A stretch of DNA of 64,000 bases from a virus: IMG/VR virus record IMGVR_UViG_3300005518_000003, positions 14,564-78,563 of that record. One strand, given 5' to 3'. The notes under the pieces are model-generated. The model was not told where the DNA came from, made no database searches, and saw only the letters and a list, made by a program, of their open reading frames with translations. The position numbers were made by a program, and so were the translations under genes. Of this stretch, positions 696 through 42,713 are shown in pieces. Every line of letters begins with the position of its first letter. Within the stretch, counting starts at the first letter, position 1.

Positions 696-1364
696 CTACG
701 ACTTGCACGCCGTGATGTAGCAGTCCGGAATCTGGATTCCGCACATATCACGAAGTCGAAGCAGCGCTTCGCGATCCGTGATGTTGACGCCGTCGAACTT
801 GTCCGTGTCGGGCGTAAGCGTTTTGAACGTCATCACGACCGTGATTGGGAAGTCCGGGAGCTGGACACGCGCGAGAAAATCGACCTGGAGCTGCTGTTGG
901 TACGTCATCACCCAGATGCCGTTTGGAAATCCGGGTCCTGGCGTTCCGGCGGCTTTCGCGAGCGTCGAGAGTGGCGTGAACTTCGATGCGATCGACGGCC
1001 GCGGCATGCCGACGACGTTGATCTTCGCTTCGATGCCGCTTTGGAGCGAAAAGAAGAAGTCGCTCTGCGGTTGAAGCACGTTCTGCGGCGTGCGGTCGCG
1101 TGTGATCGTGTACTCGATCTCCTCGATGATCGTGTCCGCGACGATCTTCACGTCGCTTCCGACTTCCGGATTCAGATTGCGATCCGGGTTGTCGAACGTC
1201 GTACGGACGTTGATGTAGTAGGGCACGAACGGAATGCCCTGCGCGCGCGCGAGTGCGAGTCGCGGATACCCGAGTGAGAGAAATCGGTAGATGTCCCTCA
1301 GCCAGTGATCGATCCCGCATGCCCCGGCGCAGTCGCCGAATCCCTTCTTGAGCTCGTCATTCAT
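696..1364 (-). CDS. Putative structural protein (minor capsid-like, beta-rich)
   Basis: 222 aa with alternating hydrophobic strands, directly downstream of the capsid candidate. N-terminal KKGFG and Cys-rich termini. Function inferred from position. Confidence 0.5.
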   Translation of the reverse strand: MNDELKKGFGDCAGACGIDHWLRDIYRFLSLGYPRLALARAQGIPFVPYYINVRTTFDNPDRNLNPEVGSDVKIVADTIIEEIEYTITRDRTPQNVLQPQSDFFFSLQSGIEAKINVVGMPRPSIASKFTPLSTLAKAAGTPGPGFPNGIWVMTYQQQLQVDFLARVQLPDFPITVVMTFKTLTPDTDKFDGVNITDREALLRLRDMCGIQIPDCYITACKS

Positions 1365-1375
1365 GGGGTCTCTCG

Positions 1376-1416
1376 ACGCCTCAGCCCCTCGGCCTTTCGG
1401 CGTCGGGGCTTGGCGT
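1376..1416 (-). promoter_or_regulatory. Structured RNA element, copy 1 (3' of capsid candidate)
   Basis: ACGCC-A-AGCCCC-GAC-GCC-GAAA-GGC-CGA-GGGGCU-GA-GGCGU. Matches copy 2 with compensatory changes. An extra GCGGC-GAAA-GCCGC hairpin lies at 1422-1439. Confidence 0.75.
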
Positions 1417-1444
1417 AGCTAGCGCGGCTTTCGCCGCGTCAGCG

Positions 1445-2827
1445 TTAGATGTTGACGAAGCCGCACTCGCACTCCGAGCAGAGTGCATCGCGCGCGTCCG
1501 CGTTGTTGCGGAGGAACGTCATGAGGTCGCCGTCGAGCTCGCGGCCCTTGACGAGCATCGAGAGCTTGAGGTCGCCCATCTTGTAGAAGGCGCGCTCCGC
1601 GAAGACCGCCTGCGAGTAGTTGACGATCGCCGCGGGCGGCACGTCGAGCGATTGCTCGAGCATGACCGGCGAGCCGCTGACCGTTCCGCCGAAGTTGATG
1701 TTCGTCGCGTCGACGATGAACGGAGGAATCACGCCGTTGCCCTGACGGCCCTGCGTGACCGAGAGGTAGTCGCGCATGATGTCGCCCTGGGTGTCGTCGA
1801 CCTGCTGGAGGACGAGACCGATCGGGATGCCTGCGCCGATGATGTACGGCAAATCGAGCTTTCGGAACTCGCTGTTGCCGCGGAGCATGTGACGGAGGTC
1901 CATGCCGCCGTAGGTGACGGGCGCGAGCTCGAACGCGCGCGACGGACGGAATTCACCGACCGGTACGCCGCCGACCGTGAGCACGCCCTCGCGGATGAAG
2001 TCGATCTTGAGGAAGTCGAACGCCGTTCCGAGCGAGTCGTAGTAGTCGTTCGTGCGACGAATCTCGGCGAGAACTGCGTCCTCGCTGAGACCCGACGAGC
2101 CGTCCTGAGCGTTCGGCGGCATGTACGCCGTGTGACGGAGGATTTCGTCGAGGATGTTCCACTTCGTGCCGATCGCCCAGCGGAGATCGTACGCGCGCAC
2201 GAGGTGCCACGCGACGTAGTTGGCCCACGCACCCCACTGAAGGATGGCAGGACGCATGAACTGCGTCGGCGTCTGACCGTCGAAATTGTCACCGAGGGCT
2301 CCGTTCACGATGTCGGCGACGGTGAAGACATCGGGGCTCGGCGGCTTCGCTTGGCCGACGACCGGGTGCGTCCACGCGTTGCCGAGAATCGACCACGACT
2401 TCGGCTCGGGTTCGAGGTGAAATCCGATCGCGCACGCGAGCATGTGGGTGTTGAGCTCGCCGTTCTGCGGCATCGTCGATTCGACGAATGCCACACCTTC
2501 GACGCTCTTCGAATTTCCGAAGAGATCGATCTCGCTCGAGAAGTTCTTCTCGATCGCCTGGTCGGTGATCGGGCCGACGAGCGTCCAGCGCGTTTGATGG
2601 ATCGTGTCCATCGCGTAGGACGCGCAGTCCATCGAGCTCTTGAGGAGGTTCGTGACGCCAACCGCGCCAAGACCCTTCTTCACGCCGCCTTCGTAAGAGC
2701 GGACCTTCTCGATGCTGATCGGCTCGCCAAGGCCGACTTTCTTGATCTCGATCTCCCGCTTGATTTGGCGGAACTTCGGGCGGAACGGGTGTTTCGGAGT
2801 CGACGGTTTGGCAAGTGCGGTGTCCAT
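1445..2827 (-). CDS. Candidate major capsid protein (non-HK97, possibly jelly-roll)
   Basis: 460 aa, strong GAGGAGA RBS, strongly biased codon use, beta-rich, flanked by paired RNA elements. Basic N-terminal arm with two GLG sites. Fold not verified. Confidence 0.45.
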   Translation of the reverse strand: MDTALAKPSTPKHPFRPKFRQIKREIEIKKVGLGEPISIEKVRSYEGGVKKGLGAVGVTNLLKSSMDCASYAMDTIHQTRWTLVGPITDQAIEKNFSSEIDLFGNSKSVEGVAFVESTMPQNGELNTHMLACAIGFHLEPEPKSWSILGNAWTHPVVGQAKPPSPDVFTVADIVNGALGDNFDGQTPTQFMRPAILQWGAWANYVAWHLVRAYDLRWAIGTKWNILDEILRHTAYMPPNAQDGSSGLSEDAVLAEIRRTNDYYDSLGTAFDFLKIDFIREGVLTVGGVPVGEFRPSRAFELAPVTYGGMDLRHMLRGNSEFRKLDLPYIIGAGIPIGLVLQQVDDTQGDIMRDYLSVTQGRQGNGVIPPFIVDATNINFGGTVSGSPVMLEQSLDVPPAAIVNYSQAVFAERAFYKMGDLKLSMLVKGRELDGDLMTFLRNNADARDALCSECECGFVNI

Positions 2828-2890
2828 GCTGTTCTCCTCTGCTCTCGTGGTTGCCGCAGCCGGGTCACGAGGTGCAGTTTGGTTTTTTCA

Positions 2891-2932
2891 ATGCCTCAGC
2901 CCCTCGGGCTTGCGCCGTTGGGGCTCTGGCAC
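2891..2932 (-). promoter_or_regulatory. Structured RNA element, copy 2 (5' of capsid candidate)
   Basis: GUGCC-AG-AGCCCC-AAC-GGC-GCAA-GCC-CGA-GGGGCU-GA-GGCAU, GNRA loop, covaries with copy 1. Confidence 0.75.
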
Positions 2933-2947
2933 GCTATGTCGAAGCGG

Positions 2948-4684
2948 TTACTCGGCCGCTTCGTCGTTGCGACGGTGTCTCGACGTTCCGGGGAACCGGA
3001 GCGAGGAGTTGTCCTCTTCCACCACGAGTCCGAGACCGCGCGCCGCGCTGTCGAGAACCTGCGGATGGAATTGTCCGAGCGTCGCGAAGCTGCCGCGATG
3101 CTTGGCGATGAGCTGATCGGCGTACTTGCGCTGATCCGGTGTCGCATGTCCTGCCGCATGCGCAGCGAGCACTTCGCGATTCTTTCGAAGCGCGACGTAG
3201 GCTTCTCCGTGCGAGCGTAGGACGTCCGTTGCTCCCGAAACGTCGCCGAGTCCACGGACTCCCACCGGAGCGTACGCGGAAACCGGAGGGCTTTGTGGCG
3301 TCGTCGGAACCATGATGCCCGGAGGCATTTGTTCCGGCGGAACTTGTGGCTGACGCGAAATCGCCGGAGGCGGCACGAATCCGCCTGGCGGGGTGTACGG
3401 GCCTTGATTCACGACGGGCGGATATCCTCCGCCCGGTGGAATCGTCGGATGCGGACCGCCTTGTGGAAGTTGCATTTGCGGCATCACGCTCGGCCCGGTT
3501 GAAGGACCGGACGGAATCATGCTGCGACATCCGCAAGAACCGCCGAGGCCAGGGTACTGACCGCAGGTCGAGCACGGGGCTCCGGCGAGACCGACCGCCG
3601 TGCGCTGTCCGATTTCTCCCGAGAAAAGCTTCTTCCCGGTCGAGTCGGATGCGCTGTCCTTGAAGAGGTACGCCGCGAGATCGTCGACGGCTTTTCCGAC
3701 GAGACGAACGGCTGCGCCGAATCCGAAGAACTGAAGCGCGCTGCGCCCCATCGGCGATCGAATGAACTGCGCGACGACGAGCGGTGTTCCGGCCACGGCG
3801 ACGCCCGCACCAACGCGCGGAAGGAAGTCGTCCATGAGCGGAGCTTCGATGAAGCGCATCGCGAGCGCTTGACCTTTGTCGTCCTTGCGTTCTCGCATCG
3901 TCACGAGACGATCGATCACGTCGGCAGCGGTGTAACCGATGGCGCCCGTGACGAGGCCGACGACGAGCTCCCAGCCAGTGACCGGGTTCTCCATCGCTCC
4001 GCGACGGGAGTGACGACGGCGACGGAGACGCTCACCCGTGATGTGTCCGACGAGGCGCGTGCGGTAGCGCTTGCCGTGCGACTTGCCTCCGCGGCGACGT
4101 GTGAAACGTCCGCGACGGGTGCGACGCACCTGGCGCGGGAACTCGCGCGCACGCGCGCGACGACGACGACCACCTCGACGGCGACGGCGGCGGCGCGGAG
4201 CTTCGGCTGCACGCGCGTAGCGGCGGCGACGGCGGCGGCGCGGAGCTTCTCGAGAACGACGTGCGCGACCTCGACGACGGCGACGGCGGCGCGGAGCTTC
4301 CTCACGCGATTGACGACGACGACGACGACCACCCTTGCGACGTTTGCGGGCCATGTGCACGGTCTCCTTGGAATGAGAACGGCGTCTCGCCCGCACGCGA
4401 GATCGTTTTCTTCGCTTGAGTGAACCGCGACGGCGGCGCTTCGTCAAGCCCTCTTCTTTCGCATGACGACGGCGACGGCGTTTGCCGGCACGACGCTTTG
4501 CAGCTTTCCCGCCGAAACCAGCCTTGATCTGCGCAGGAGTCAGCCTGCGTCGTTTTCCTCTTCGCGCCATCTTTCTGCCTCGTTTTCGTGGGGTGTCTGC
4601 ATGAAGGACCACCGCCCGCCTCGAAGCAGCCTGCTCTGGCTCGGAACGCGCTCGCGAGAGAATCTCTCGATAGTCGACGGGCAT
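2948..4684 (-). CDS. Arg-rich (protamine-like) core/membrane polyprotein
   Basis: About 200 aa of poly-Arg tracts, then MENP, hydrophobic helices, a Cys cluster and a Pro/Gln-rich region with GLG sites. The start may be MARRGK at 4570. Confidence 0.7.
   Translation of the reverse strand: MPVDYREILSRARSEPEQAASRRAVVLHADTPRKRGRKMARRGKRRRLTPAQIKAGFGGKAAKRRAGKRRRRRHAKEEGLTKRRRRGSLKRRKRSRVRARRRSHSKETVHMARKRRKGGRRRRRQSREEAPRRRRRRRGRARRSREAPRRRRRRRYARAAEAPRRRRRRRGGRRRRARAREFPRQVRRTRRGRFTRRRGGKSHGKRYRTRLVGHITGERLRRRRHSRRGAMENPVTGWELVVGLVTGAIGYTAADVIDRLVTMRERKDDKGQALAMRFIEAPLMDDFLPRVGAGVAVAGTPLVVAQFIRSPMGRSALQFFGFGAAVRLVGKAVDDLAAYLFKDSASDSTGKKLFSGEIGQRTAVGLAGAPCSTCGQYPGLGGSCGCRSMIPSGPSTGPSVMPQMQLPQGGPHPTIPPGGGYPPVVNQGPYTPPGGFVPPPAISRQPQVPPEQMPPGIMVPTTPQSPPVSAYAPVGVRGLGDVSGATDVLRSHGEAYVALRKNREVLAAHAAGHATPDQRKYADQLIAKHRGSFATLGQFHPQVLDSAARGLGLVVEEDNSSLRFPGTSRHRRNDEAAE
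4180..4300 (-). repeat. Three tandem coding repeats, EAPRRRRRRR
   Basis: GGCGGCGCGGAGCTTC recurs three times on the + strand. Confidence 0.75.
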
Positions 4685-4759
4685 GACGGTGTTCCCACGT
4701 CACCCGCACGTAACGCTTGGGAGAAGTCTACGCGCAGATCGAGAGATTACGCAACAAGG

Positions 4760-5275
4760 TCACGGAACCACGATTCCGCGGTCATCGACGATGCATCCGT
4801 CCGGCAGCTCGATCCGATAGAACTGCTCCGAGGTCTTTCGACGCCAAAAGGAATAGAGCACCGCGGGTTTCTTGAACGCTCGGCTCTTGAATGGATAGAG
4901 AAGAAGCTGCGTGAGATTCTTCGCCTTGTTGAATTTATGGTGAAAGAACCCCGGATGCTTTGTGCCTGCTCGGTCGTAGTAGATCTCGTTGATCTCTCCG
5001 AGCTTGTGCCACGTGGAAATATTTTCTGGCGGAAGATCGATTCCGCCTTCGAACACGGTTGCGCTGCGACCAAAATAATCTGAACCTTCGTCGCTCTCTG
5101 TCTTTCCACGATCGAACTCACCGATCAGCAAGCTGCACGTGGGCCAGTCTTCACCACTCTCGTCGTAGAGCATCGCCGCGTCGCGAGCCGGCTTGACCCT
5201 CTTACTCCCGCTACCGAGACCGATTCCCGGAGCGCGTAGGTTGATCTCGATCTTGCGTCCCATGCAGATCAGCAT
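4760..5275 (-). CDS. Hypothetical virion-module protein
   Basis: 171 aa, co-oriented in the operon, GIGLGS near the N-terminus. Confidence 0.65.
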   Translation of the reverse strand: MLICMGRKIEINLRAPGIGLGSGSKRVKPARDAAMLYDESGEDWPTCSLLIGEFDRGKTESDEGSDYFGRSATVFEGGIDLPPENISTWHKLGEINEIYYDRAGTKHPGFFHHKFNKAKNLTQLLLYPFKSRAFKKPAVLYSFWRRKTSEQFYRIELPDGCIVDDRGIVVP

Positions 5276-5281
5276 GGAGCC

Positions 5282-6118
5282 TCACTTCGCTCGACGACTC
5301 GCCCACCAAGCTTTGATGTCGTCTTTGTACACAAAGCCGAGAACACCCGCGGTGACGACTGTTCCGCCAAGCATCCACCAACCCCACGGGAACTCCGGCC
5401 CGGCCTTTGGCGTAGTGCATCCGCCAGCCACGAACTTCTGCGCTTCGAGAAGATCGTCGCGCGCCTTCAAATCTTCCTTCGACCAGGGCGCGTTCGGATT
5501 CTGGATGTGATAGTCGACGATTTTGTTGTAGTCCGCATGCAATCGAATGAGCTCGCGATCACATTCGATCTTCGAAAGAATGTCGTCGATGACGAGCGAC
5601 GCGAAGTAGATCAAAGCGATGGCGATCGCTGTAACCGCAAGCATCTGCGCGATGACGGCAACGATCATCACGGGGATGAGCACCTCGATGTTTCCCGTCG
5701 AGTTGTTTTTCATCTGCGTGGCGTCAGCCGGCGTTGGCGTTTTGATTCCGCGTCGCTTCGCAATAATCTGAAGCGTACGAGCCAGCGTATCTGTCGGATT
5801 GTCCGAGCCGCCAGCGCTGATATTTTTGTCGTTCGCGAGCTTCGCGTTGATCGCACTCGAGACCATGAGCGTGATGAAGTCTTGCTTCGAAGGGTTGTCG
5901 TTCGCGATCCACTTTTTGGCGGTGGCTCTTGCATTCGCGGAGGCGAACGCCTGATCCCACGAGCGGCCCTGTACTTGTGCCCAAAACTGTTTGATGAGTA
6001 CGTACGGATTGAGCGAAAACGCAGGAAGTTTGAGCGCTGCGGTGACGTCGTCGATGGGTGCGCCAAGGCCCACGATGCGAAGTGCTTTCTGAAAATCTTC
6101 GTAGCGTACGAGGGTCAT
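5282..6118 (-). CDS. Membrane protein (internal and C-terminal TM segments)
   Basis: Long hydrophobic stretch plus C-terminal WGWWMLGGTVVTAGVLGFVY; GLGAP near the N-terminus. Confidence 0.7.
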   Translation of the reverse strand: MTLVRYEDFQKALRIVGLGAPIDDVTAALKLPAFSLNPYVLIKQFWAQVQGRSWDQAFASANARATAKKWIANDNPSKQDFITLMVSSAINAKLANDKNISAGGSDNPTDTLARTLQIIAKRRGIKTPTPADATQMKNNSTGNIEVLIPVMIVAVIAQMLAVTAIAIALIYFASLVIDDILSKIECDRELIRLHADYNKIVDYHIQNPNAPWSKEDLKARDDLLEAQKFVAGGCTTPKAGPEFPWGWWMLGGTVVTAGVLGFVYKDDIKAWWASRRAK

Positions 6119-7002
6119 CGGCTTCTCACCTTTCGAATGACGACGGCAGCGAGAGCCGACGCAGCGACGATACCACCGCCGACCACGGCCGCCTGCTTGT
6201 TCGTGAGCTTCGGAAGTGAGGGCAGATCGGGAAAGAAATCGCCAAGCTCACCGAGACCACGAACGAGACCGCGAATCGGCTTCGCGAGCTGCGGTGCTGC
6301 GGCTTGGACGCCCTGACCGACGTTATACCAAACCTGTTCTTGCGGATCCGGACCGAGCACCATCTCGCTCGGAAGTTGATGGTACTGGCCGTCACTTCCA
6401 AGACCAAGCACCGGTAGTGCTCCGATTCCGACGAACTCGGCTTGAAGACCCGCGTACGCCGGATCCTTCCACGGGTTCATGCGTGTCTCACGCGACGCCT
6501 TCGCCTTTTCACCCGCCGTGAAGCGCGGCGTGGTCGCATCGAGTGGAAACCATTTCCCATCTTCGAGTTTCACTTCGCAAATCACGTGCTGTTGATGCTC
6601 CGACCCGAAGAACTGGCGAACAATCTCAACTTCGAGTCCCGACGCCGCGCAAAGCGACGCGAGTGCCGTCACGAAGCCATCGCAATCCTCGATCGGAATG
6701 CACGCCAAGGCCCCTTCAACGCAGAGCGTGATCGGCGCGGCTTGGATCAACTCCGTGCCCGGTGGATCGTGCGTGTACCCAATGCTTCGTTTGCAATGGT
6801 TGAAGTGCGCGGTCGCTTTCTCTTTGTTCGTTCGCGGAAACATCGCTTGGCGAAGGATGTTGCCCGCGAAGCTGCGAAAAATTGGCATGGGAGCAGCCTC
6901 CCGAACCTTTTCGCAGATTTTGTGCAGCGACTTTTGGATCCCTTCCTCGCCGTCCGGATACGACTCACGAAGGTACGGAACGCCAGCGGAGGAGGTGTTC
7001 AT
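6115..7002 (-). CDS. Transglutaminase-like cysteine protease with C-terminal membrane anchor
   Basis: DCDG (Cys), QHVICEV (His) and WFPLDAT (Asp) in the order of the transglutaminase-core triad; C-terminal TM followed by a basic tail. Confidence 0.8.
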   Translation of the reverse strand: MNTSSAGVPYLRESYPDGEEGIQKSLHKICEKVREAAPMPIFRSFAGNILRQAMFPRTNKEKATAHFNHCKRSIGYTHDPPGTELIQAAPITLCVEGALACIPIEDCDGFVTALASLCAASGLEVEIVRQFFGSEHQQHVICEVKLEDGKWFPLDATTPRFTAGEKAKASRETRMNPWKDPAYAGLQAEFVGIGALPVLGLGSDGQYHQLPSEMVLGPDPQEQVWYNVGQGVQAAAPQLAKPIRGLVRGLGELGDFFPDLPSLPKLTNKQAAVVGGGIVAASALAAVVIRKVRSR

Positions 7003-7005
7003 CGA

Positions 7006-7398
7006 TCAGTCCTGAATGCACATATACGGGAAGTTCGGCATTCCCGTAGGAACGGAGTGATATCCCGGAGGACACGGATTCGCTTTCGGGTTGGAAAGAT
7101 TCTGCGCGAGCTGACTCGCAACATTTGCAAGATTGACGGGTTGCAATTGCGGCGGCGGCTGCGGTGGTGGCGTCGTATCGACCGGCTTGACGTTTCCAGG
7201 CGGACCGGTTGTCGTCGGCGTCGATCCAGGAGGAAGCGGTTGCTTTCCGCTCGCGATGTCCTCGGTCGTCGATTTCTTCGTAAGGTAGTTCGTGAGGAGA
7301 ACGGCGACGGTCGTTGTTATCGCGGCTGTTGCCCCGGCAATAAGGAGCTGCATCCCCGTGCTCTCGACCGGATTTCTTCGCGCTCTTCGCATCACCAC
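7006..7398 (-). CDS. Small membrane protein with RRNP leader
   Basis: MRRARRNPVES, then a TM helix and a Pro/Thr-rich tail. Confidence 0.7.
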   Translation of the reverse strand: MVMRRARRNPVESTGMQLLIAGATAAITTTVAVLLTNYLTKKSTTEDIASGKQPLPPGSTPTTTGPPGNVKPVDTTPPPQPPPQLQPVNLANVASQLAQNLSNPKANPCPPGYHSVPTGMPNFPYMCIQD

Positions 7399-7970
7399 AC
7401 CGGAAGCGGGTTGGCTGGGAGCAGAAACCCAATCTGCGAAGCGATGGCTTGAACGCTCTTATAGAGCGCGTTGATCAACTCCGAAGAGAGCTGGAGCCCT
7501 TTCATCGCGTTCACCCATGCGGCAACGTCGTTCAAGAGCTGTTGGTTATTCTGCTGGTTCGGCTGACCGTACGCTTGCGGATTCGGCGCGGGCGGTGGTG
7601 TTCCGCCTCCTCCGCCTCCGCCTGGTGGAAGAGTTTTTCCACCGCCACCCATTTGCGCTGAACTTGGACGCAGCGCGAAGTAGAGGCCCGTCCCTAGGAT
7701 GGCTGCACCGCCGAGACCACCGAGGATGTAGAGCGTCGATTTTTTCATGACCGGATTGCTGCGTGCACTTCTTCGGCGTGCGCGTCGACGTTTTACGTAG
7801 CGACGAGAATAATCGCGTCGATCAAGGCTTGCAGATCCACGCGAACCGTGAGGAAGCCATCGCAGAGCTTCTCGTTTGTTCCTCGCTTGGACGTAAAAGT
7901 ACGACGACCTGCTTTCCCCAGGATAGCGGTAGGTCACCTTGTACGATTTGAAATCCCACATCGCGGGCAT
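7392..7970 (-). CDS. Membrane protein with basic domain, RSNP motif and TM
   Basis: RBS before ATG 7970; RRRARRRSARSNPV, then TM ending GLYFALRP. Confidence 0.7.
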   Translation of the reverse strand: MPAMWDFKSYKVTYRYPGESRSSYFYVQARNKREALRWLPHGSRGSASLDRRDYSRRYVKRRRARRRSARSNPVMKKSTLYILGGLGGAAILGTGLYFALRPSSAQMGGGGKTLPPGGGGGGGTPPPAPNPQAYGQPNQQNNQQLLNDVAAWVNAMKGLQLSSELINALYKSVQAIASQIGFLLPANPLPVW

Positions 7971-8034
7971 CCCTCTTTCACGCACGACGCGCCCGCACGA
8001 GCGCCTGCATGTCGTCAGCATACGACGAGGTGGG

Positions 8035-9135
8035 TCACTTCGACAATTCGGCCAATTTGTTGATGGTGGTGGCGATCTTTATAACGACGCTCAGCGCAGA
8101 GAGTGCGGGGCCGAAAGCCAAGGAAAACACTGTTCCGATCGTGGCCATGAACATCTCGAAGACCATCCCAGCATCGACCACTTTGATGCATGGATTTACC
8201 TTCTCGTCGTGCGACTCGAACATGTCGATCAGTCCCGCGATCATCATTCCGCCAACAGACGCGTGGAGCATCGTGAGCGATTTTTGCGGAAGAGGTTTCC
8301 CTTCGCTGTCGGTCGTCGGAAGCGTTTTGTCGTTTTTCTTTGCGAGGTCGCGTGCAAATTGTGCGAGCCGATCGCGCGTCCACGCGGGCATTGCGAACAT
8401 AAAGAGCGAAGAAACATCACCTGGAAGAGAAAACGGCAACGTGATCCCGTATTTCTTCAACGCGGTGAGCACACCTCCGAAGTCTCCGCTGTCCAGTCCT
8501 TTTTTGATGCTGGCCTCCATCGAAGCGACGACCGCTGCGTTGAATGCTCCTGGATCTGCGTGAGGATCGATCGCGTTCCCAGCGTAGCGAATCTGTTTTC
8601 CTTTGTCTCGCGGGTCGCATTGGAGATCGACTCCACACGTCTTGATGATGTCAGGACCGCGATAGACCGTGTTGAAGAACGGGTAGGCCCAATCGTTTCC
8701 GAGCTGAACAACCGCTGCGGCCAACGTCTGGCAATGCGAATGACTCGCAAGTTCGTCGGTCGTGAATTTATTTTCTTTGTTGTAGAAGGCCGCCAGAATG
8801 AGATCGATCACTTTTACGCCGCCGTGCGTGAAGATTTTTCGAAACGCATCGGCTTGAAGAAAAATCGGCGTGCCATTCCCGAGTAGATCCGCCATGGCCG
8901 TCAGCCGTTTCGTAAGCGCTGCGATCTCGATTCCTCGAAGCACGGACACTTGTGCGTACGTCGAGCTCACGGCGAGCATGCTCTCGATCGCGGATTTTTT
9001 CTTTGGCCTTGTCGCCGCGTAGACGATTCCGCCGAAGAGAGCAACGCCAGCACCGATGCCACCGTAAACCGTGAGCTTCGGGTGCTTGTGATAGAAGCGC
9101 TTCGCACTCCTCTTGACGTCGCTGACGAGTTTCAT
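8035..9135 (-). CDS. Membrane-anchored protein
   Basis: N-terminal TM ending GGIVYAATRP and a hydrophobic C-terminus; 366 aa. Confidence 0.7.
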   Translation of the reverse strand: MKLVSDVKRSAKRFYHKHPKLTVYGGIGAGVALFGGIVYAATRPKKKSAIESMLAVSSTYAQVSVLRGIEIAALTKRLTAMADLLGNGTPIFLQADAFRKIFTHGGVKVIDLILAAFYNKENKFTTDELASHSHCQTLAAAVVQLGNDWAYPFFNTVYRGPDIIKTCGVDLQCDPRDKGKQIRYAGNAIDPHADPGAFNAAVVASMEASIKKGLDSGDFGGVLTALKKYGITLPFSLPGDVSSLFMFAMPAWTRDRLAQFARDLAKKNDKTLPTTDSEGKPLPQKSLTMLHASVGGMMIAGLIDMFESHDEKVNPCIKVVDAGMVFEMFMATIGTVFSLAFGPALSALSVVIKIATTINKLAELSK

Positions 9136-9443
9136 GACCGAGTCGCTGAAATCACACCACCGCCGCCACCGTTACTTCCGCCGCCACCGATCTGATTTCC
9201 GTGTTCATCGACCCACGACACGTTTGGAGAGTATGGAGCGAACGCTGCGTAGACTCCCGGAACAGCAGTGGGAGAGATCGTCGTTACGTTTGGCTTGGCT
9301 CCATCACCGCTTGTCGGTGGTCTCGTTCCTTGGGGAGAGACGATCTGCTTCGGCCTAGTGGCGTAGTAGACCGCCCCGCCGATGCCAGCCGCACCTGCGA
9401 GGAGTCCAACGATCCACGCTGCCTTCTTTGCACCCTTCGTCAT
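9132..9443 (-). CDS. Small membrane protein
   Basis: N-terminal TM ending GGAVYYATRP; Gly-rich tail. Confidence 0.7.
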   Translation of the reverse strand: MTKGAKKAAWIVGLLAGAAGIGGAVYYATRPKQIVSPQGTRPPTSGDGAKPNVTTISPTAVPGVYAAFAPYSPNVSWVDEHGNQIGGGGSNGGGGGVISATRS

Positions 9444-9455
9444 CCGGCAACGATA

Positions 9456-9644
9456 TCACTGGTCGGACACCGCCACCAAGATCGCGATCAGAGTGAGCGG
9501 CCAAAACGCGGAAACGAACATCGCTCCGATCGTTACTTCGACCAATTCTTCCGTCGTCGCGCGGTGTTTCCAGGGACGGATCACGGCCGCGCAGAGGCCC
9601 ATTGATCCAGTAAACCCGAGAAGCCAGATGTGAAAGATTGTCAC
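9456..9644 (-). CDS. Small two-TM protein
   Basis: GTG start just after the stop of 9647..11158; two hydrophobic segments. Confidence 0.5.
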   Translation of the reverse strand: MTIFHIWLLGFTGSMGLCAAVIRPWKHRATTEELVEVTIGAMFVSAFWPLTLIAILVAVSDQ

Positions 9645-9646
9645 GA

Positions 9647-11158
9647 TCAGAAGCCTCCCCAACCTCCTTCGCCTGAACCCGTCCCTGGATTTTGCGGAGG
9701 CTGCGGTGGTTGCTGCGGTTGAAGTTGTTGCATCGGCGGCGGCTGTTGAAATTGCGGTGTCTGCTCTTCTTCTTCGGGCGATCCGGCGAGACCACGACGC
9801 TTGGTGGCTTGAGCTTCGAGCCATGCAGCTCCCGCATCCATAAGCCTCTGCGACGGACGCGGATTCATGAGAAGCATCCCGAGCGGATCGACCTTGCCCG
9901 TTTCCTTGTCGCGAACGAGCTTCGCCTTGGTTCCGTCGTCCCACACCGAGGGCAGCTCGGTGATCTGGTACGGGAGATCGTCCTCTTCCTTCACCTCGGG
10001 CGGTGCAGGAAGCATTGGAACGGTCGTCGTCTCTTCCGGCTCTTCGGCCGCAAATCGTTCGCGCATCTTTTCACCGAACGCGACGTAGCGATCGAAAATC
10101 TTGAAACCCTGATCCATCGCCGTAAGCGGATCCATCTGCGTTGACGACGTTGGTGGAGCGCCGAGACCGGCTGCTTTGACGGCAGCGATCATCGCGGTCG
10201 CAAGACCTTCGACGGTCATCTGCGTGATCGGGGTTTGACCCGGAGGAGCTCCGACACCCGGTCGATGTTGTGGTTGTGGTGATTGCGGTTGCTGCCTCAG
10301 CCGCCGATTCTCTTCTTCGAGCGCAGCGAGACGCTTCTCGAGATCGGATTGCTGCGGCGGCGGAAACCCGTATTGAGGTGGGTAGCCGTAGGGCTGGTAG
10401 CCGTACGGAGCCGGAGGTTGCGGAGGTTGCTGCGGCTGCTGTTGCTGCGGCTGCTGCGGTGGTTGTCCAGGAGCAGCGGGGAGCCGGGGAATTTGGCCGA
10501 AGCCCGGTTGCGGGCCGTACTGGCTCGCCATTCGCTGTTGCCACTGGGCTTGACGAAGCGCGTTGATCTCGCCTTGCGACTGAAGCGAGATGTAGCCGTT
10601 GACGATGTACTGTCCGTTCGCTTTCCAGACGAACTGGAGCTCGTAGCGAGCCGGACCGCGCGCGATGTTGTGGTAGTAGTCCTCGACGTACTGTTTGATC
10701 GCCGTTGTCGGCGACATCTCTTGGTTGCCAACGACCGCGCTCGCCTCGAACGCATACCCAATGCTCTGACGCGGCGGCGGATCGATTCGAATCACGTTGA
10801 CGACGACGTCATACGCAGATCGTCCGTGCGCCTCGAGCCATTCGAGAACTTCGGGCCAAAGAACTTCTACTTCTCGGCTCGTCCACTTCGGAGCTCCGTC
10901 TGCACTCGCATCGAATCGATCAGGGATGGCTCCTGCTTTTCCGCTCGGTCTTCCAGGAGTTTTCGGAGCGCCAACACCCGTTTGAGTTGGACCGCGACGC
11001 CTGCCCGCGGGATGTGTTTTTTCTTTCTCTTGAGGTGGAGGCGTTGGAGGAGGAACGACCGGTGCTGTTTCAACTGGTACACCATTCGCTCCTTCCGGCG
11101 GCGGTTCCCAATCTGGTCCCTGACCCGGCGTTGCCGGATCTTGCGTTTCATTGTCCAT
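9647..11158 (-). CDS. Pro/Gln-rich protein (possible scaffold or tape-measure-like)
   Basis: 503 aa, low-complexity linkers, short coiled coil, repeated GVGAP/GLGAP. Confidence 0.7.
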   Translation of the reverse strand: MDNETQDPATPGQGPDWEPPPEGANGVPVETAPVVPPPTPPPQEKEKTHPAGRRRGPTQTGVGAPKTPGRPSGKAGAIPDRFDASADGAPKWTSREVEVLWPEVLEWLEAHGRSAYDVVVNVIRIDPPPRQSIGYAFEASAVVGNQEMSPTTAIKQYVEDYYHNIARGPARYELQFVWKANGQYIVNGYISLQSQGEINALRQAQWQQRMASQYGPQPGFGQIPRLPAAPGQPPQQPQQQQPQQPPQPPAPYGYQPYGYPPQYGFPPPQQSDLEKRLAALEEENRRLRQQPQSPQPQHRPGVGAPPGQTPITQMTVEGLATAMIAAVKAAGLGAPPTSSTQMDPLTAMDQGFKIFDRYVAFGEKMRERFAAEEPEETTTVPMLPAPPEVKEEDDLPYQITELPSVWDDGTKAKLVRDKETGKVDPLGMLLMNPRPSQRLMDAGAAWLEAQATKRRGLAGSPEEEEQTPQFQQPPPMQQLQPQQPPQPPQNPGTGSGEGGWGGF

Positions 11159-11182
11159 GTTGGTCCCTTTTCTGAAATTCGT

Positions 11183-12358
11183 TTACGCGACGAGAGGTGT
11201 CGCACTCGTGACCGGCGTGATCGCGATCTGCTGAATCGTTCCCTGAAGGAACTGAAAAAACGCTTCTGCTTGCGCTTGCGTATTTCCAGTAACGGGCGGA
11301 AAGAATTCCTCGAACTGAGGTGTGATCGTGAACGTCGTTCCCGGAAAGTAGCCTTCGCCTTCGGCGATCGTGTCGATGCGACCGAGACCCATCCGTGCAT
11401 GCGCTGTTGCACCGGTTCCTGGAGCGACGCCCGTGTCGCGAATGAGAATCGATGGAACGGTGACGTAGTTGTCACCAGGATCGGTGACCGTAATGGCCGT
11501 GATGGGAAATCCAGGGCCAGCCCCAACCGTGACGACACCTTGCGCAGGAAGACCTTCGGCCATGACGGCGAAGAGTTTCGCAGGACGGCGAGGAGCGATT
11601 CCGGTCGTCGTCGTAATGAAGACATCCGGCACCGATTCGTAGACGCGACCCATATCGACGATCGTGATCGACTGAACGCGACCTCGGGCGTCGAGCTGAA
11701 GAATTCCCTGCGCAGGAATCGGTGGCGAATTTCCTTCCGGACCGCCACCCTGAATGTTGAGGATCGCTGTTGCCGGGTCATATCCCTCGCCTGGATCCGC
11801 GATGTTGATGTAGCGAACCGCTCCGCCACGTCCACCCTTACGCGTGTCGAAGTTGAAGCCCGCAGGCGGAAGGCCTCCAAGCCACGTGATCCTCGTCGTC
11901 GAGGCCGTGTATCCGGCCCCTCCGGTGTCGAGCGCAGTTTCGTACGCAGCCATGTACGCCCTGAAGAGCGCATCACGTTGGGTCGGTCTCCTCGGAACGA
12001 CGTTTCCGTTCACGATGGGAGCGAGCGGTTCGCGCTGGTTGTTGTTCGCCCGAATGATCGGCGGAAGAATGAAATCACGACCGCGATTCGCAACGTCCAC
12101 GGTTACCTGCTGGATGCGACTTGTGTTCGTGATCGTCGGCGGGTTCAAGAGCGCGGCGACTGAAGGCTCAAAGCCGAGCACGATCGTACGCACGATTGGA
12201 TTCACGGCAGGGATCGTGATGGAGTCCGAAATGATCCGCAGGCCGAGCGCCTGAAGAATGTCTGGCGGGATGGGGGCGCTCGCAATGAACGGCTGAATCT
12301 TGGTCGAGCTGATCCCGAGCGCCTGGACCGTGTAAACGAGCGTGACCTGGGTACCCAT
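11183..12358 (-). CDS. Beta-repeat virion surface/spike-like protein
   Basis: Repeats of I/V-x-I/V-x-D-x-G-x-G-Y...P-x-V-x-I, typical of phage structural beta modules. Confidence 0.55.
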   Translation of the reverse strand: MGTQVTLVYTVQALGISSTKIQPFIASAPIPPDILQALGLRIISDSITIPAVNPIVRTIVLGFEPSVAALLNPPTITNTSRIQQVTVDVANRGRDFILPPIIRANNNQREPLAPIVNGNVVPRRPTQRDALFRAYMAAYETALDTGGAGYTASTTRITWLGGLPPAGFNFDTRKGGRGGAVRYINIADPGEGYDPATAILNIQGGGPEGNSPPIPAQGILQLDARGRVQSITIVDMGRVYESVPDVFITTTTGIAPRRPAKLFAVMAEGLPAQGVVTVGAGPGFPITAITVTDPGDNYVTVPSILIRDTGVAPGTGATAHARMGLGRIDTIAEGEGYFPGTTFTITPQFEEFFPPVTGNTQAQAEAFFQFLQGTIQQIAITPVTSATPLVA

Positions 12359-12864: not shown

Positions 12865-14814
12865 CTACCGGGAACGCACCTTGTGAAGCTTTTTGTCGGC
12901 GAACGAATAGAACTCGCCTTCGCCCATCACCACGTGGTCGATGAACGCGATTCCAGAGGCTTTGCAAGCATTTTTCATTGCTTTGGTCAGGTCGGCATCG
13001 GCATCCGAAAAATCCGCTCCGCCGCTCGGATGGTTGTGCAGGATCGCAAGCCCTTTCGCGCCGCGATCGATGGCCGGCTTGAGGACGTCAGCAGGATCGA
13101 CGGCAACGCGATCGCGCTGACCTACGTGAACGATGGCGACCCCGCGGAGGTCGGAATGGATATCGAGCAGGATCGCGCAGAGGTGCTCCTTGTCCTGCTT
13201 CGAAGCCCACGGATGCATCATGTTGTAGATGTCGCGTGAATTCTTGATCGGACCGATTTGTTGCGCGACCTCGCGAATCTCTCGAAAGTCATCCGCGTTG
13301 CGCTCGACCTTCACGAACGGAATTCCATCCGTCACCTCAACGGGATTCTCACCCACGTGTTTTGCATGTGGCCAGTGCTGTCGCGCGCTTGCTCGTACTT
13401 GATCTTCAGATTCACCACGAATGATGTTGATCGAGTACCCGTGACGATCACGCGCAACCGCTTCCCACTCTTGGCGGACTTCGTCGTACGCGATCTCTAC
13501 GGTCACGACCTTTCGCTCGCGTCCCTCGGCCGCCCCGCCACATCCGTGCTCGCAGCCGCATTCGTTCGCTTCACGCGAGATGCCACCAGGAACACCTCGT
13601 TGCGGATCCAACTTAGACAAAGCCTCGGCATTGCTCGGGAGCTTCCTCACCCGCTTACCAGTGTTTGGCCAGTGATAGAGCCCCTTCTTGTAAAAGAGCT
13701 CGCGCTCGGTGTAGCTGCCGTCATCCCGCGGCGTGTACGTCCGAACGACCCATTTCTTTTTGTCGTCCCAATACTTCACGAAGTGCGTCGCTGAGAACAT
13801 TCCACGATGAGCTTCATGGCGAAGCGCATCGTCGATGTTGTTGAAGTCGCGCGCTTCACGTGGCCCGCTCTCTGGAGGAAGTAGTGGAGGAGTCTCCGGT
13901 CCCGAGTGGAGAATGAGATGCTCCGATTTCATCTTGCCTTTAGAGCCGTCGCGCCAGAGAACGGTGATCTTTTCGCCTTCGACGGAGATCACGACGCCGG
14001 GATTGAGTTTCTTTGCAAGCCTTGGAAGAACGCCAGGCGCAAGCTGCACGTCGTCACCGCGTTGGAAATCGCGCGCCTGGACTGGGTTCTCGCGGAGCAA
14101 CCGATCGACGCCCGACTTCGCCTGTCGCAACGCCTCACCACGTGTGGTCGCACCCCAATGACCTCCACGAACGATGGCCGACCACCACGTGGTTCCGTCG
14201 TCCATGAGATATTTTTCGAGTCGAATGTTCTCGCCGTGGTAGTCGACCGTCTCGCGTTGTTGGATTCGATCGCGCGCCTCGACGGGGTTCTCGCGAACAA
14301 ACGAGACGCTCGGACGCACCGCAGGCTGCGAATTCGCAAAAGCTTCTGCTTCGCCTTTCGTCTTGAACGGGCCGTGATACTCGCTGCTCCGATCACTTGG
14401 TCTGCGGCCGTATGCGTACCAGACCGTGCTCCCGTCTTTCGGACGCTCTGATGGATGCATCTGATCACTCGAAACGATTCGCCAAGGAATCGGTTGCCTC
14501 CATGCCGGCTGAGGACCGCGACGAGGATTCTCTCGCGCACCCGGACGTCGGATCAGTCCAATGTGCACCGCGTAGTCGTACGCGCTCTCGTGCATCTTTC
14601 GTGGATTGAGGAAGCCGTCTTGAATCGCTTCGCCGACTTGATCATCCCACCACTCAATGATGGTCGCGTCGTTCTTCGCGTTGATCAGCTCGACGTGTGC
14701 TCGGTCACGCTCCTCCCAGGTCGAGAGCCGCGTGTCACTGAGAGACAATTCGGGCACGGAATGACGTCCACGGCGACGGGCTTCTTCGGCGGCGGCGGGA
14801 TTCATTCGAGGCAT
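12865..14814 (-). CDS. Multi-domain (polyvalent) protein with C-terminal RadC/JAB domain
   Basis: C-terminal E...HNHPSG...SDAD...DHVV JAB motif; small domains separated by RENP/GENP linkers. Confidence 0.85.
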   Translation of the reverse strand: MPRMNPAAAEEARRRGRHSVPELSLSDTRLSTWEERDRAHVELINAKNDATIIEWWDDQVGEAIQDGFLNPRKMHESAYDYAVHIGLIRRPGARENPRRGPQPAWRQPIPWRIVSSDQMHPSERPKDGSTVWYAYGRRPSDRSSEYHGPFKTKGEAEAFANSQPAVRPSVSFVRENPVEARDRIQQRETVDYHGENIRLEKYLMDDGTTWWSAIVRGGHWGATTRGEALRQAKSGVDRLLRENPVQARDFQRGDDVQLAPGVLPRLAKKLNPGVVISVEGEKITVLWRDGSKGKMKSEHLILHSGPETPPLLPPESGPREARDFNNIDDALRHEAHRGMFSATHFVKYWDDKKKWVVRTYTPRDDGSYTERELFYKKGLYHWPNTGKRVRKLPSNAEALSKLDPQRGVPGGISREANECGCEHGCGGAAEGRERKVVTVEIAYDEVRQEWEAVARDRHGYSINIIRGESEDQVRASARQHWPHAKHVGENPVEVTDGIPFVKVERNADDFREIREVAQQIGPIKNSRDIYNMMHPWASKQDKEHLCAILLDIHSDLRGVAIVHVGQRDRVAVDPADVLKPAIDRGAKGLAILHNHPSGGADFSDADADLTKAMKNACKASGIAFIDHVVMGEGEFYSFADKKLHKVRSR

Positions 14815-18493: not shown

Positions 18494-20275
18494 TCATGCG
18501 TCCTCCGCAAGCATCTCTGCCATCTTCACGCGCTCGCGAGACGTCTCTTCGGCGAGCTCGCGTCGTGTGAGCCTCTGGATGTACGCATTGCGCGAAGACG
18601 TTGCCCAGCGCTCTTCCTCCAGCGCTTCCCCAATCTCTTCGCGCGTCATGTCCTTTGGATACGCGTCAGCGAGAACGCGAAGACACTTTGCTTCGGGTCC
18701 TGGAAGCTTGCGAAGCCAGTGTTCGAGCAGCGCTACGCCGGTCGGAAGCTCTTCGTAGTCATCGCCAAGCCATTCGACGCCCTCCAGAGTGATGCGGTGG
18801 CGATCTCCGACCTCCTCAAAGATGCCGGCATTCCGACCGCGCTGGAAATACGCGTTGCGTGTGCTTCCCTTCGCCCCGGTGATTTGTGTGATCTGCGAGC
18901 GCGTCACTCCGCTTTCTCCGAACTGCGCGACCGCAGCCACGAACGACCGCGGAACTTTCACTTCTCCTTCAACCTTCGACGCATCCCCATTCGACTGAGG
19001 TCTCGACGCAACCCTCTTCTTTTCTTTTGGTACGACGACGATCGCCGGAACAACGATCTTTCCGACAGCGAGATGTTGCATCTGCTGGCGAAGTCGCTTG
19101 AGCTCATCGAGCGCTGACTGCGCCATACCCTCGGCTCGGAGCGTTTTCTCTTTCGCATCTTCGGTTGCTTTGCGCGACGAACCCAAAGCTTCAACCAACG
19201 CGTCGACCTGCTTCTCGAGTTTCTTTTCTTGTCGCTTCGTAAGAACCGGTACCTCGATACGCTTTGGGATACGCGCGGGAGATGGATCGGGTTGAAGCTT
19301 CTTGAATTTTCCCGCTGCCTCGAGCTCCTTTTTGAGTCGCATGACTTCTGCCTTCAATGCTTTCGGATCGTTCGCTTTCGCTTGTTCTACGGTCGCCGCC
19401 ATCTGCGCAGAGAGCGCACCAAGATCGACGTCAGCAAGTGTCTTGGGAGGCTTGACCTTCTTCCCATCCGGCGTCCGACTGGAGTCGAACGTCTTTCGTT
19501 CACGGAATGAAACGCATTCGAGCATCCCGTTCATGAGACCTGGCGCCCAAAACCAACCCGTGCCGCGTTCGAGCGACGAAAGCGTTCCTAGCACTTGCTT
19601 TTGCTCTTCTTTGGTCCCGTTGTGTTCGATCCAGTCCCCGAATGCGTTGATGTCCTGCGGTCCCGTGAGGCGAAACGCGATCAAGATCTCGATTTGTGTG
19701 AGCACGTCTTTCGCGATGCGTGCAGGACGCTGCGAAATGAGCGTCACACCGATGCCGCGCGTACGACCACGCAGAACGAAATCGTTGATCGCCCCAACGA
19801 GCGGAAGCATGTCCGCAGAATCGACGCGCTGCGGGACGAAGAGATCGCACTCATCGATGACGATGTGAAGAGGCTCTCGTTGCTTGTTCTTGAGGAGGTA
19901 GAGCTTATCGGCGAAGTCGCGAACGAACCGGCGCATCGCGCTCTTCGAGAAGTCGGAGAGATCGAGCACACACGAGAGACGATTTTCGACGACGTACTCG
20001 GCGAGGACGGTACCTCCACGCTCCTCGAGTGGCATATCCGCATGGAGACCCCCGAAGATCGGAATCGGATAGCCGCCTTCCTTTTTTCCATTGCTCCCCG
20101 CACGAAGCCCCCAGGCTCCGCCTGTCGGATCGATGACAATGGTCTGCACCTTTGCGTCGAGTAGCTCCTCGACGAGGAGCATCCCGGTGTGGGTCTTACC
20201 CGAACCGCGCTTACCGATGATTCCGATGGTCTCGGTTGCGATGTTCGGGATCTTGAGCTTGGGGGCGAGACGCAC
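18494..20275 (-). CDS. HerA/FtsK-superfamily ATPase (DUF87-like) with coiled coil and C-terminal HTH-like region
   Basis: Walker A GKRGSGKT, Walker B IVIDE, RGRTRGIG, SQRPA...KDVLTQ. Confidence 0.85.
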   Translation of the reverse strand: MRLAPKLKIPNIATETIGIIGKRGSGKTHTGMLLVEELLDAKVQTIVIDPTGGAWGLRAGSNGKKEGGYPIPIFGGLHADMPLEERGGTVLAEYVVENRLSCVLDLSDFSKSAMRRFVRDFADKLYLLKNKQREPLHIVIDECDLFVPQRVDSADMLPLVGAINDFVLRGRTRGIGVTLISQRPARIAKDVLTQIEILIAFRLTGPQDINAFGDWIEHNGTKEEQKQVLGTLSSLERGTGWFWAPGLMNGMLECVSFRERKTFDSSRTPDGKKVKPPKTLADVDLGALSAQMAATVEQAKANDPKALKAEVMRLKKELEAAGKFKKLQPDPSPARIPKRIEVPVLTKRQEKKLEKQVDALVEALGSSRKATEDAKEKTLRAEGMAQSALDELKRLRQQMQHLAVGKIVVPAIVVVPKEKKRVASRPQSNGDASKVEGEVKVPRSFVAAVAQFGESGVTRSQITQITGAKGSTRNAYFQRGRNAGIFEEVGDRHRITLEGVEWLGDDYEELPTGVALLEHWLRKLPGPEAKCLRVLADAYPKDMTREEIGEALEEERWATSSRNAYIQRLTRRELAEETSRERVKMAEMLAEDA

Positions 20276-42169: not shown

Positions 42170-42502
42170 TCACCGAAGTCTCTTCGCGAGTTGCCAGCCG
42201 AGCAAACCGCCGCCAATAATTCCGGCGCCGGCAGCGATGAGGCTGTACTTCACAACGGCGGAACGCGCAGCCTGCGCGCCCGTTTCTCCGGCCATGGCAG
42301 CTTGTTGATGGACGTAGTCTTTCGAGCTGTTGATGACGCTCTGAGCGAGGCTATCGAGCTGCGGTTTCACCTGGGCGATGATCTGGGCTCGGATGTTCGC
42401 TTCGAGTCTAGCAATCTCGCTATCGACGGTCTTGCGAACGTCGAGCAGATCTCCGGGTGAGAGCCCGAGACCGATGCGCGCGGCGAGCTCGGCGTCGTTC
42501 AT
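42170..42502 (-). CDS. Small C-terminally anchored membrane protein
   Basis: RIGLGLS near the N-terminus, helical body, C-terminal TM plus basic tail. Confidence 0.65.
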   Translation of the reverse strand: MNDAELAARIGLGLSPGDLLDVRKTVDSEIARLEANIRAQIIAQVKPQLDSLAQSVINSSKDYVHQQAAMAGETGAQAARSAVVKYSLIAAGAGIIGGGLLGWQLAKRLR

Positions 42503-42713
42503 CGAATCCCTGCTGCTCGCTGAAGCTCTGGAATTTGATCCGTAGGGATAAGGAATCCGCCCTGGGCTGCCGTAGCCCAACCAGCCTTCCAGAGGGATTC
42601 ATAGATGCTCCAACCTTCGTCGCTCGGGACGAGAATGCGACCACGAGCGAGAAGAAGCTTCACGAGTGCGCGAAGTTGCGGAGGTCGGAGCTGTTCGAGA
42701 GATTTTTTCTTTT

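Follow-up and report, generated by a model that had tools for sequence, protein, structure and literature searches.

A hallmark shared by adenoviruses, poxviruses, African swine fever virus (ASFV), virophages and polinton-like viruses is that a virus-encoded cysteine protease matures the particle by cutting virion precursors at glycine motifs. The clan CE core proteases of ASFV (pS273R) and poxviruses (I7) cut at GG↓X and AG↓X (the arrow marks the cut bond), and among the prohead proteases of tailed phages T4 gp21 cuts at L/I-x-E and phiKZ gp175 at S/A/G-x-E. The adenovirus protease (adenain, C5) cuts many capsid and core precursors at glycine motifs, its sites being (M/I/L)XGG↓X and (M/I/L)XGX↓G in pIIIa, pVI, pVII, pVIII, p-mu, pTP and L1 52/55k, including IVGL↓G of pVI (PMC4246237). 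Prokaryotic relatives of the ASFV/poxvirus/adenovirus lineage have been described as lacking such a protease (PMC4405056), and a survey of prokaryotic double-jelly-roll viruses from 2018 makes no use of the word 'protease' (PMC5894146). Among bacterial cysteine proteases of the transglutaminase-like type, LapG and DvhG cleave at a motif of small residues, Ala-Ala, and DvhG has a membrane helix (PMC10990149). The DNA considered here is a stretch of 64,000 nucleotides (the window), which comprises bases 14564-78563 of one 78,563-bp contig, IMG/VR record IMGVR_UViG_3300005518_000003. The genome is that of an uncultured soil virus, probably a large tailless prokaryotic one with a membrane in its particle, and the host is presumably a bacterium. 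A preliminary description of the window drew attention to glycine-hydrophobic-glycine sites across the structural proteins and proposed that they constitute a second code, used for precursor processing analogous to that of adenoviruses, poxviruses and ASFV. In the analysis reported here this motif, often followed by Ala or Ser and then Pro, is specific to one block of particle genes, and on the sequence evidence it is a functional signal read by a common factor. The favoured reading, held at a probability of about 0.5, is that the motif would be the cutting site of the virus's own membrane-anchored enzyme, encoded at 6115-7002. A literature search found no publication describing this combination of motif and enzyme.

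Genes were called by a codon model trained on the sequence itself, which gave 79 in the window and 99 genome-wide. The block under study, referred to as the module, consists of the 12 proteins (3706 aa) encoded at 696-12358, whose genes all lie on the minus strand and show a near-total lack of database matches; the other 87 proteins of the genome served as the comparison set. The motif G[LVIF]G occurs 22 times in the module, as compared to 7.5 +/- 2.7 expected from whole-protein shuffles, none of 3000 of which reached 22 (Poisson tail 1.2e-5); the enrichment is about threefold. When shuffling is limited to blocks of 10, 20 and 40 residues, so that local composition is kept, the expectation rises to 10.2, 8.8 and 8.3, respectively, and none of 1500 shuffles of each size reached 22. 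The comparison set holds 23 motifs against 24-29 expected, which is chance level. A control motif, G[not LVIFMG]G, is not enriched in the module (22 against 23-25 expected), so glycine content does not explain the excess of G[LVIF]G; together with the block shuffles this rules out glycine content or local composition as the cause. A hydrophobic middle residue is found in 22 of the 59 G-x-G triplets of the module and in 23 of the 127 outside it (odds ratio 2.7, Fisher test p = 0.0045). The longer word G[LVIFM]GAP is found five times in the module plus two upstream genes, where 0.10 are expected, and nowhere else. Since the 22 sites are encoded by 17 distinct 9-base words, the signal resides in the protein and a repeat at the DNA level is ruled out. 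The raw count of 22 includes three sites within predicted membrane helices, which are discussed below. Outside membrane helices, sites number 12.8 per 1000 aa over residues 1-65 of module proteins, 3.9 over the remainder of these proteins and ~1.0 in non-module proteins. The flanks are biased as well, with Ala (2.2-fold) and Ser enriched directly after the motif, Pro at the next two positions and Lys two to three places upstream. The motifs listed in the preliminary description were all located. Its remark that most lie near termini or in linkers is supported, and the Fisher test that it proposed, with correction for composition, shows enrichment in the module.

The strongest evidence is the positional conservation of the sites, of which the following gene is an example.

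1445..2827, minus strand: major capsid protein candidate, 460 aa, with an N-terminal arm of ~54 residues that carries two G-x-G sites, KVGLGE at residue 32 (G32-L-G34, nucleotides (nt) 2726-2734) and KKGLGA at residue 52 (G52-L-G54, nt 2666-2674)

This gene has the top codon score of the genome, and its product has at least 168 homologues, all metagenomic and many on contigs of 60-82 kb. The AlphaFold2 (AF2) model of the protein (predicted local distance difference test score, pLDDT, 80.8) is a beta-sandwich for which VIA-align gave weak matches to jelly-roll capsid proteins (HCIV-1, PRD1 P3 and P23-77; Z <= 3.7) and Foldseek gave no clear match in the PDB. A single-protein scan of viral contigs returned no relative of the capsid candidate, and tblastn against 50,697 phage records returned none of either the capsid candidate or the enzyme domain. 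The first ~55 residues of the homologues can scarcely be aligned, yet the two G-x-G sites stand out when counted over the 116 homologues that have a VRW anchor. Site 2 reads G-x-[GA] in 116 of 116, at 22-28 residues upstream of the anchor; a hydrophobic residue stands in the middle in 114 (L 84, F 19, M 5, I 3, V 3), and S, A or D comes next in 101. Site 1 lies ~44 residues upstream of the anchor in 113 of the 116; the residue before it is V, I or L in 99, and the middle residue of the site is more variable. The leader ahead of site 1 ranges from 13 to 58 residues, and the conserved capsid core begins directly after site 2.

The relatives of the window comprise 34 non-redundant related loci, and enrichment of the motif around the capsid gene is seen in five of six that were tested, with the control motif enriched in none. 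Observed and expected counts from 20-residue block shuffles are 36 and 17.8 in L002, 31 and 18.1 in L004, 29 and 19.5 in L005, 29 and 20.4 in L006, and 17 and 10.9 in L007.

The candidate for the factor that reads the motif is encoded within the module itself, next to a membrane protein with which it is fused in many relatives.

6115..7002, minus strand: transglutaminase-fold cysteine enzyme with a C-terminal membrane anchor, 295 aa, candidate maturation protease; catalytic residues Cys107 (nt 6682-6684), His139 (6586-6588) and Asp155 (6538-6540); linker sites VGIGA at residue 192, LGLGS at 200 and RGLGE at 249 (nt 6421-6429, 6397-6405 and 6250-6258)
5282..6118, minus strand: membrane protein, 278 aa, with a 19-residue leader that ends in RIVGLG and is followed by AP; VGLGAP at residue 17, nt 6062-6070

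The product of 6115-7002 scores 28.7 bits with Pfam PF01841 (Transglut_core; cut-off 23, E 1.7e-6), a match that is found also in homologues that bear inteins or are fused. It is the single Pfam match among the module proteins and the only family returned for the enzyme at E <= 0.01, with no match to PF06035 (LapG/BTLCP) or to NCBIfam; PHROGs returned nothing for the enzyme orthologues, and a profile search against PDB sequences gave no match for the enzyme. C107 (within D-C-D-G/D), H139 and D155 do not vary across 16 sequences, the most divergent of which are 23% identical. In the AF2 model the core is folded to about residue 183 (pLDDT above 50 from residue 12) and a C-terminal helix spans residues 268-294, while linker segments 184-197, 215-254 and 256-272 fall below pLDDT 50. 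All three of the enzyme's own sites lie between the folded core and the C-terminal helix, in the region of these low-confidence segments. Both Foldseek and VIA-align assign the core to the transglutaminase-like superfamily; the top VIA-align matches are all of this type, led by the putative protease 3kd4 (Z 11.2; root-mean-square deviation 3.4 over 134 residues) and including factor XIII (9.6), the putative cysteine protease 3isr (9.2), PNGase (9.1), LapG 4fgo (7.7) and the pseudomurein isopeptidases PeiP (7.9) and PeiW (7.1). As judged from the model, assignment of the fold to the transglutaminase-like superfamily is settled, although for the reaction catalysed the enzyme is only a candidate protease. 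The Cys-His-Asp order, which is that of papain and the transglutaminases and not the His, Asp/Glu, Cys order of clan CE, together with the lack of a Pfam match to clan CE families (C5, C48, C57 and C63) among the module and other proteins scanned, indicates that the enzyme is not a relative of adenain or Ulp1, and clan CE chains are absent from the 50 highest-ranking VIA-align rows and from the Foldseek rows for it. The processing analogy of the preliminary description is upheld as regards a cysteine enzyme with an intact triad among the same genes, but the fold is transglutaminase-like and probably not that of the adenovirus, poxvirus and ASFV proteases.

An orthologue of the enzyme is present in 20 related loci, which are all of those that reach far enough upstream. 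In several relatives (L003:4942-7245 and proteins P0144, P0149 and P0158) an intein, consisting of Hint and LAGLIDADG endonuclease domains, is inserted exactly before the catalytic Cys, which is the +1 residue. Inteins are usually inserted at essential sites of the host protein.

The gene at 5282-6118, the product of which begins MTLVRYEDFQKALRIVGLGAP, lies downstream of the enzyme gene with a 4-base overlap of start and stop. Many relatives instead encode the enzyme and the membrane protein as one fused product of 490-546 residues (P0137-P0143 and P0146-P0159). G17 and G19 of the window protein are invariant in the alignment with fused homologues, and the fused forms examined have G-[LVFA]-G-A-[PI]-[WI] in the linker, at the start of the membrane module. 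The window gene for the membrane protein begins ~16 residues upstream of this junction site. Presence of the site in fusion linkers and its retention in the split gene mark it as a module boundary within a natural polyprotein-like form.

Other module proteins, and one protein encoded outside the module, carry the remaining sites.

696..1364, minus strand: minor-capsid (penton-like) candidate, 222 aa; KKGFGDC at residue 8, nt 1335-1343
2948..4684, minus strand: arginine-rich core protein with a membrane domain, 578 aa, N-terminal half 33% Arg; GFGG at residue 56 (nt 4511-4519), FFGFGA at 321 (3716-3724), GLAGA at 365 (3581-3592), GLGG at 379 (3542-3550), RGLGD at 478 (3245-3253) and RGLGL at 550 (3029-3037)
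4760..5275, minus strand: 171-aa module protein; GIGLGS at residues 17-21, nt 5213-5227
7392..9443, minus strand: three small membrane proteins; GGLGG, GGIGA and AGIGG at nt 7710-7718, 9052-9060 and 9378-9386
9647..11158, minus strand: Pro/Gln-rich scaffold-like protein with a coiled coil, 503 aa; GVGAP at residues 61 (nt 10970-10978) and 301 (10250-10258), GFGQ at 219 (10496-10504), GLGAP at 331 (10160-10168) and GLAGS at 456 (9782-9793)
11183..12358, minus strand: 391-aa virion-type protein; internal RMGLGR, nt 11381-11389
42170..42580, minus strand: small open reading frame (ORF) just downstream of the SLT lytic transglycosylase gene; single site RIGLGL at residue 37, nt 42464-42472

GFGG and FFGFGA of the arginine-rich protein and GFGQ of the scaffold-like protein are additional to the sites of the preliminary description. 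In the minor-capsid-like family an N-proximal G-hydrophobic-G is present in 29 of 30 orthologues, most of which begin with a leader helix (xPEQFxxLL) followed by GLGAP and then by [KR]xxG[LF]G-Cys. In the window copy and three others the helix and the first site are gone, leaving a stub of 6-8 residues plus the second site. Four sites of the scaffold-like family are conserved in position, in low-complexity linkers between conserved blocks (seven orthologues, roughly 27-32% identity). The arginine-rich family has P-[ST]-[AS]-G-L-G after the membrane domain in 23 of 24 members, and in our own reading, made without a family alignment, GLAG at residue 365 of the window protein would be the counterpart of this site; FFGFG (321) and the G-x-G in the Cys-rich knot (379) are conserved but look structural. 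The N-terminal half of this protein is protamine-like, with runs of 5-8 Arg, and is joined to the membrane domain, the Cys-rich knot and a Pro-rich tail; Arg content among the orthologues ranges from 8% to 39%. Three accessory families that are absent from the window have the leader-plus-site arrangement at residues 12-40, some of them sharing a 'PHWPQ...GVGA' leader. With these included, the arrangement occurs in at least six unrelated protein families. Across these the leaders are 13 to 58 residues long or wholly lost, and the site is retained.

Not every site fits this pattern. A hydropathy mask flags two of the three sites in the small membrane proteins, and GGIGA (9052-9060) is at the start of a hydrophobic run; these sites may reflect packing like that of a glycine zipper, and cutting there is unlikely. 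RMGLGR of 11183-12358 is probably incidental, this protein having one site where 1.36 are expected. The protein has weak PHROG matches to baseplate and head-closure proteins and is the sole one of ten module proteins with any match in PHROGs.

Some familiar signals that resemble the leaders were considered and rejected. The GLG-C of the minor-capsid-like family is not a lipoprotein box, there being no hydrophobic signal region and an unsuitable residue at -3. A type IV prepilin leader ([KR]-G then F/L) would require a hydrophobic stretch downstream, which is absent, and the leaders are too highly charged for Sec or Tat signal peptides.

The motif is particle-specific, is conserved amid drift, stands at the end of leaders that can be lost, is repeated in linkers and occurs at fusion junctions, a combination that points to a signal read by a common factor. 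The nearest candidate for this factor is the cysteine-triad enzyme of the same module, which makes cutting the most economical reading. Under this proposal, precursors would assemble with their leaders on and the enzyme would be seated in the particle membrane. The enzyme would then strip N-terminal leaders (~54 residues of the capsid candidate, the minor-capsid-like leader and 19 residues of the 5282-6118 protein), cut the Pro/Gln-rich scaffold-like protein at its linkers and detach the membrane domain of the arginine-rich core protein from the outer part, and it might also release itself from its anchor. Selectivity of papain-type enzymes is exerted chiefly through a hydrophobic S2 pocket. 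Such a pocket holding the hydrophobic residue, with room for Gly only on either side, would suit the motif (Gly-hydrophobic-Gly↓Ala/Ser). By analogy with adenovirus, in which IVGL↓G is cut between the middle residue and the second glycine, this register and a cut after the second Gly would be equally possible.

In both adenovirus and the window virus a single particle cysteine enzyme is paired with a short Gly motif in unrelated capsid, cement, scaffold and basic core precursors, cleavage being putative in the window virus. Both have an arginine-rich core protein, and the window's RIVGLG contains the pVI site IVGL↓G. The enzymes differ in fold and in the order of catalytic residues, which is Cys-His-Asp in the transglutaminase-like enzyme of the window and His-Glu-Cys in clan CE; moreover, the window enzyme is membrane-anchored and its host presumably a bacterium. 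The motifs differ too, as the hydrophobic residue in the window proteins is between the glycines or directly before them and not at P4. Capsid site 1, [VIL]-G-x-G in 99 of 113, has its hydrophobic residue one place closer than in the adenovirus code, and site 2 is x-G-[LFMIV]-G-[SAD]. With ASFV and poxviruses the window virus would share Gly-directed precursor processing in a large membrane-containing virus, as suggested by its protein sequences, but the enzyme fold and the motif are different and those viruses have eukaryotic hosts. Any likeness to clan CE viral maturation systems would be convergent.

LapG and DvhG belong to the same fold superfamily as the window enzyme (Z 7.7 to LapG 4fgo), have the same Cys-His-Asp chemistry and cut near the N-terminus of the substrate at a small-residue motif, which resembles the proposed window sites. 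They indicate that enzymes of transglutaminase fold include site-specific proteases, even membrane-bound ones, that act at motifs of small residues. They differ in having a single periplasmic adhesin as substrate and no link to viruses, and the absence of a PF06035 match leaves the likeness at the level of the fold. The prohead proteases of tailed phages likewise act on many head proteins with short N-terminal propeptides that end in one consensus, and on a scaffold that is cut up, but these are serine proteases of assemblin-like fold that recognize motifs ending in Glu and mature HK97-fold capsids. PHROG and Pfam searches of ten module proteins gave no match to a prohead protease of the HK97 gp4 or T4 gp21 type.

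A cultured counterpart of the enzyme is in Salisaeta icosahedral phage 1 (SSIP-1; JN880423), a tailless, membrane-containing phage. The enzyme family profile matched gp34, an annotated structural protein of this phage, with an hhalign probability of 97.5% (E 8e-12, 156 columns), and the alignment brings their catalytic motifs into register. SSIP-1 proteins gp37, gp53, ORF36 and ORF52 carry G-[LM]-G near the N-terminus, but the excess of the motif in the late block of SSIP-1 is weak (20 against 14 expected, p = 0.07). Of the other module families compared by profile, namely the capsid candidate, the minor-capsid-like family and two more, none matched an SSIP-1 late protein.

The motif could instead serve, uncut, as a docking or sorting tag, the hydrophobic side chain between the glycines plugging a pocket in a common partner (the capsid protein, a membrane protein or an assembly factor) which recruits unrelated proteins into the particle, while the enzyme does something else. 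Recurrence, N-terminal bias and conservation would suit a binding motif equally well, truncated leaders retain the site, and capsid site 2 is predicted to be helical. Several sites in one protein, together with sites in linkers and at fusion junctions, are more usual for processing; moreover, what precedes the site varies in sequence and may be absent, and a docking tag would leave the conserved cysteine-triad enzyme of the module without a target. A tag of this kind is rated as unlikely, though as an explanation to be taken seriously. Somewhat more doubtful is that the sites are structural hinges or turns and the enzyme is either a transglutaminase that cross-links Gln/Pro/Lys-rich particle proteins or a cell-wall isopeptidase used in entry. 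Structural matches of the enzyme do include factor XIII, TG2 and TG3 (Z 9.0-9.6) as well as PeiP and PeiW (Z 7.1-7.9), and the products of 9647-11158, 7006-7398 and 7392-8021 have Gln/Pro-rich tracts, which are typical of transglutaminase substrates. Hinges do not explain the requirement for a hydrophobic middle residue when the control motif is unenriched, nor the same five-residue word, G[LV]GAP, in unrelated proteins, nor the site at fusion junctions. The enzyme is not required as a lysin, since a separate SLT lytic transglycosylase (PF01464, E 1.3e-27) is encoded at 42714-43607, remote from the main module, and this dedicated lysin also speaks against a cell-wall role. The sites could instead be cut by another enzyme, either a host protease or the adjoining RadC/JAB protein (12865-14814), whose RadC-like JAB domain (E 2.3e-28) is encoded directly beside the module; JAB enzymes typically cut after Gly-Gly. 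Within 10 kb of the capsid gene in the related loci, the RadC protein forms no conserved family, as compared to presence in 20 loci for the transglutaminase-fold enzyme, and to our knowledge no peptidase role has been shown for RadC-type JAB domains, making this explanation improbable. A still slighter chance is given to the enzyme being a transpeptidase that opens the sites and joins the new ends to amines of particle proteins or membrane lipid. Such a reaction is compatible with the sequence evidence because the fold family has both proteases and cross-linkers, and the particle would then have a shell stitched together covalently, or proteins anchored in lipid, much as in sortase or Atg4/Atg8 chemistry.

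Cleavage by the membrane-anchored enzyme remains the favoured reading, and several points weigh against it. Protease activity of the enzyme is an assumption, given a superfamily that also holds cross-linkers, amidases and cell-wall isopeptidases, and it is likewise assumed that enzyme and sites face one side of the membrane. The AF2 model places capsid site 2 in a predicted helix of moderate confidence and not in a disordered segment. In L003 the motif has no overall enrichment (16 against 16.5 expected from 20-residue block shuffles). Several of the sites are structural or confined to a lineage; the 15 other orthologues of 4760-5275 all lack GIGLGS at the corresponding position, which puts it outside the conserved code. 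A different motif, R-x-N-P, is a possible competing candidate for the processing signal. Of the second code put forward in the preliminary description, what holds is that the motif is enriched and module-specific and keeps its positions among relatives of 27-50% identity, but some of the sites that it listed are unconserved.

If cleavage is correct, a widespread group of soil viruses with genomes of 65-80 kb would have reached the same maturation solution as the clan CE systems with an unrelated enzyme. Common to both would be leaders at the N-termini, cutting of the scaffold into pieces and processing of a basic core protein. Such a tag, being short, portable and specific to a protease, could also have practical use.

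The R-x-N-P element belongs to a second motif, R/E-x-N-P-V, which is found ahead of membrane helices in three module proteins (RRNPVE, RSNPVM and MENPVT; genes 7006-7398, 7392-8021 and 2948-4684) and recurs in the RadC protein encoded at 12865-14814. Beyond the module the genome encodes, in addition to the RadC/JAB protein and the SLT transglycosylase, ThyX, a primase-helicase, a methylase and a HerA/FtsK-type ATPase (18494-20275). The ATPase (DUF87) has a terminase large subunit as its best PHROG match (E 4.8e-17) and is likely the packaging ATPase. In L007 the orthologue of the SLT transglycosylase is placed within the module. Genome bases before the window encode a Cpn10/GroES-like co-chaperonin (PF00166, E 1.8e-28; L008:9945-10589), and a small ORF at genome bases 11877-12323 (window -2686..-2240) clusters by BLAST with the capsid-protein family. 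The family of the gene that crosses the left edge of the window has LQxxGGDP, and not G-x-G, as its conserved motif. Two module-type proteins are encoded just upstream of the window, one at L008:12701-13291 with AAGLGAW at residue 16 and EGLGIL at 27, and the other at L008:13302-14384 with IIGLGAPP at residue 14 and a weak match to bacterial SH3.

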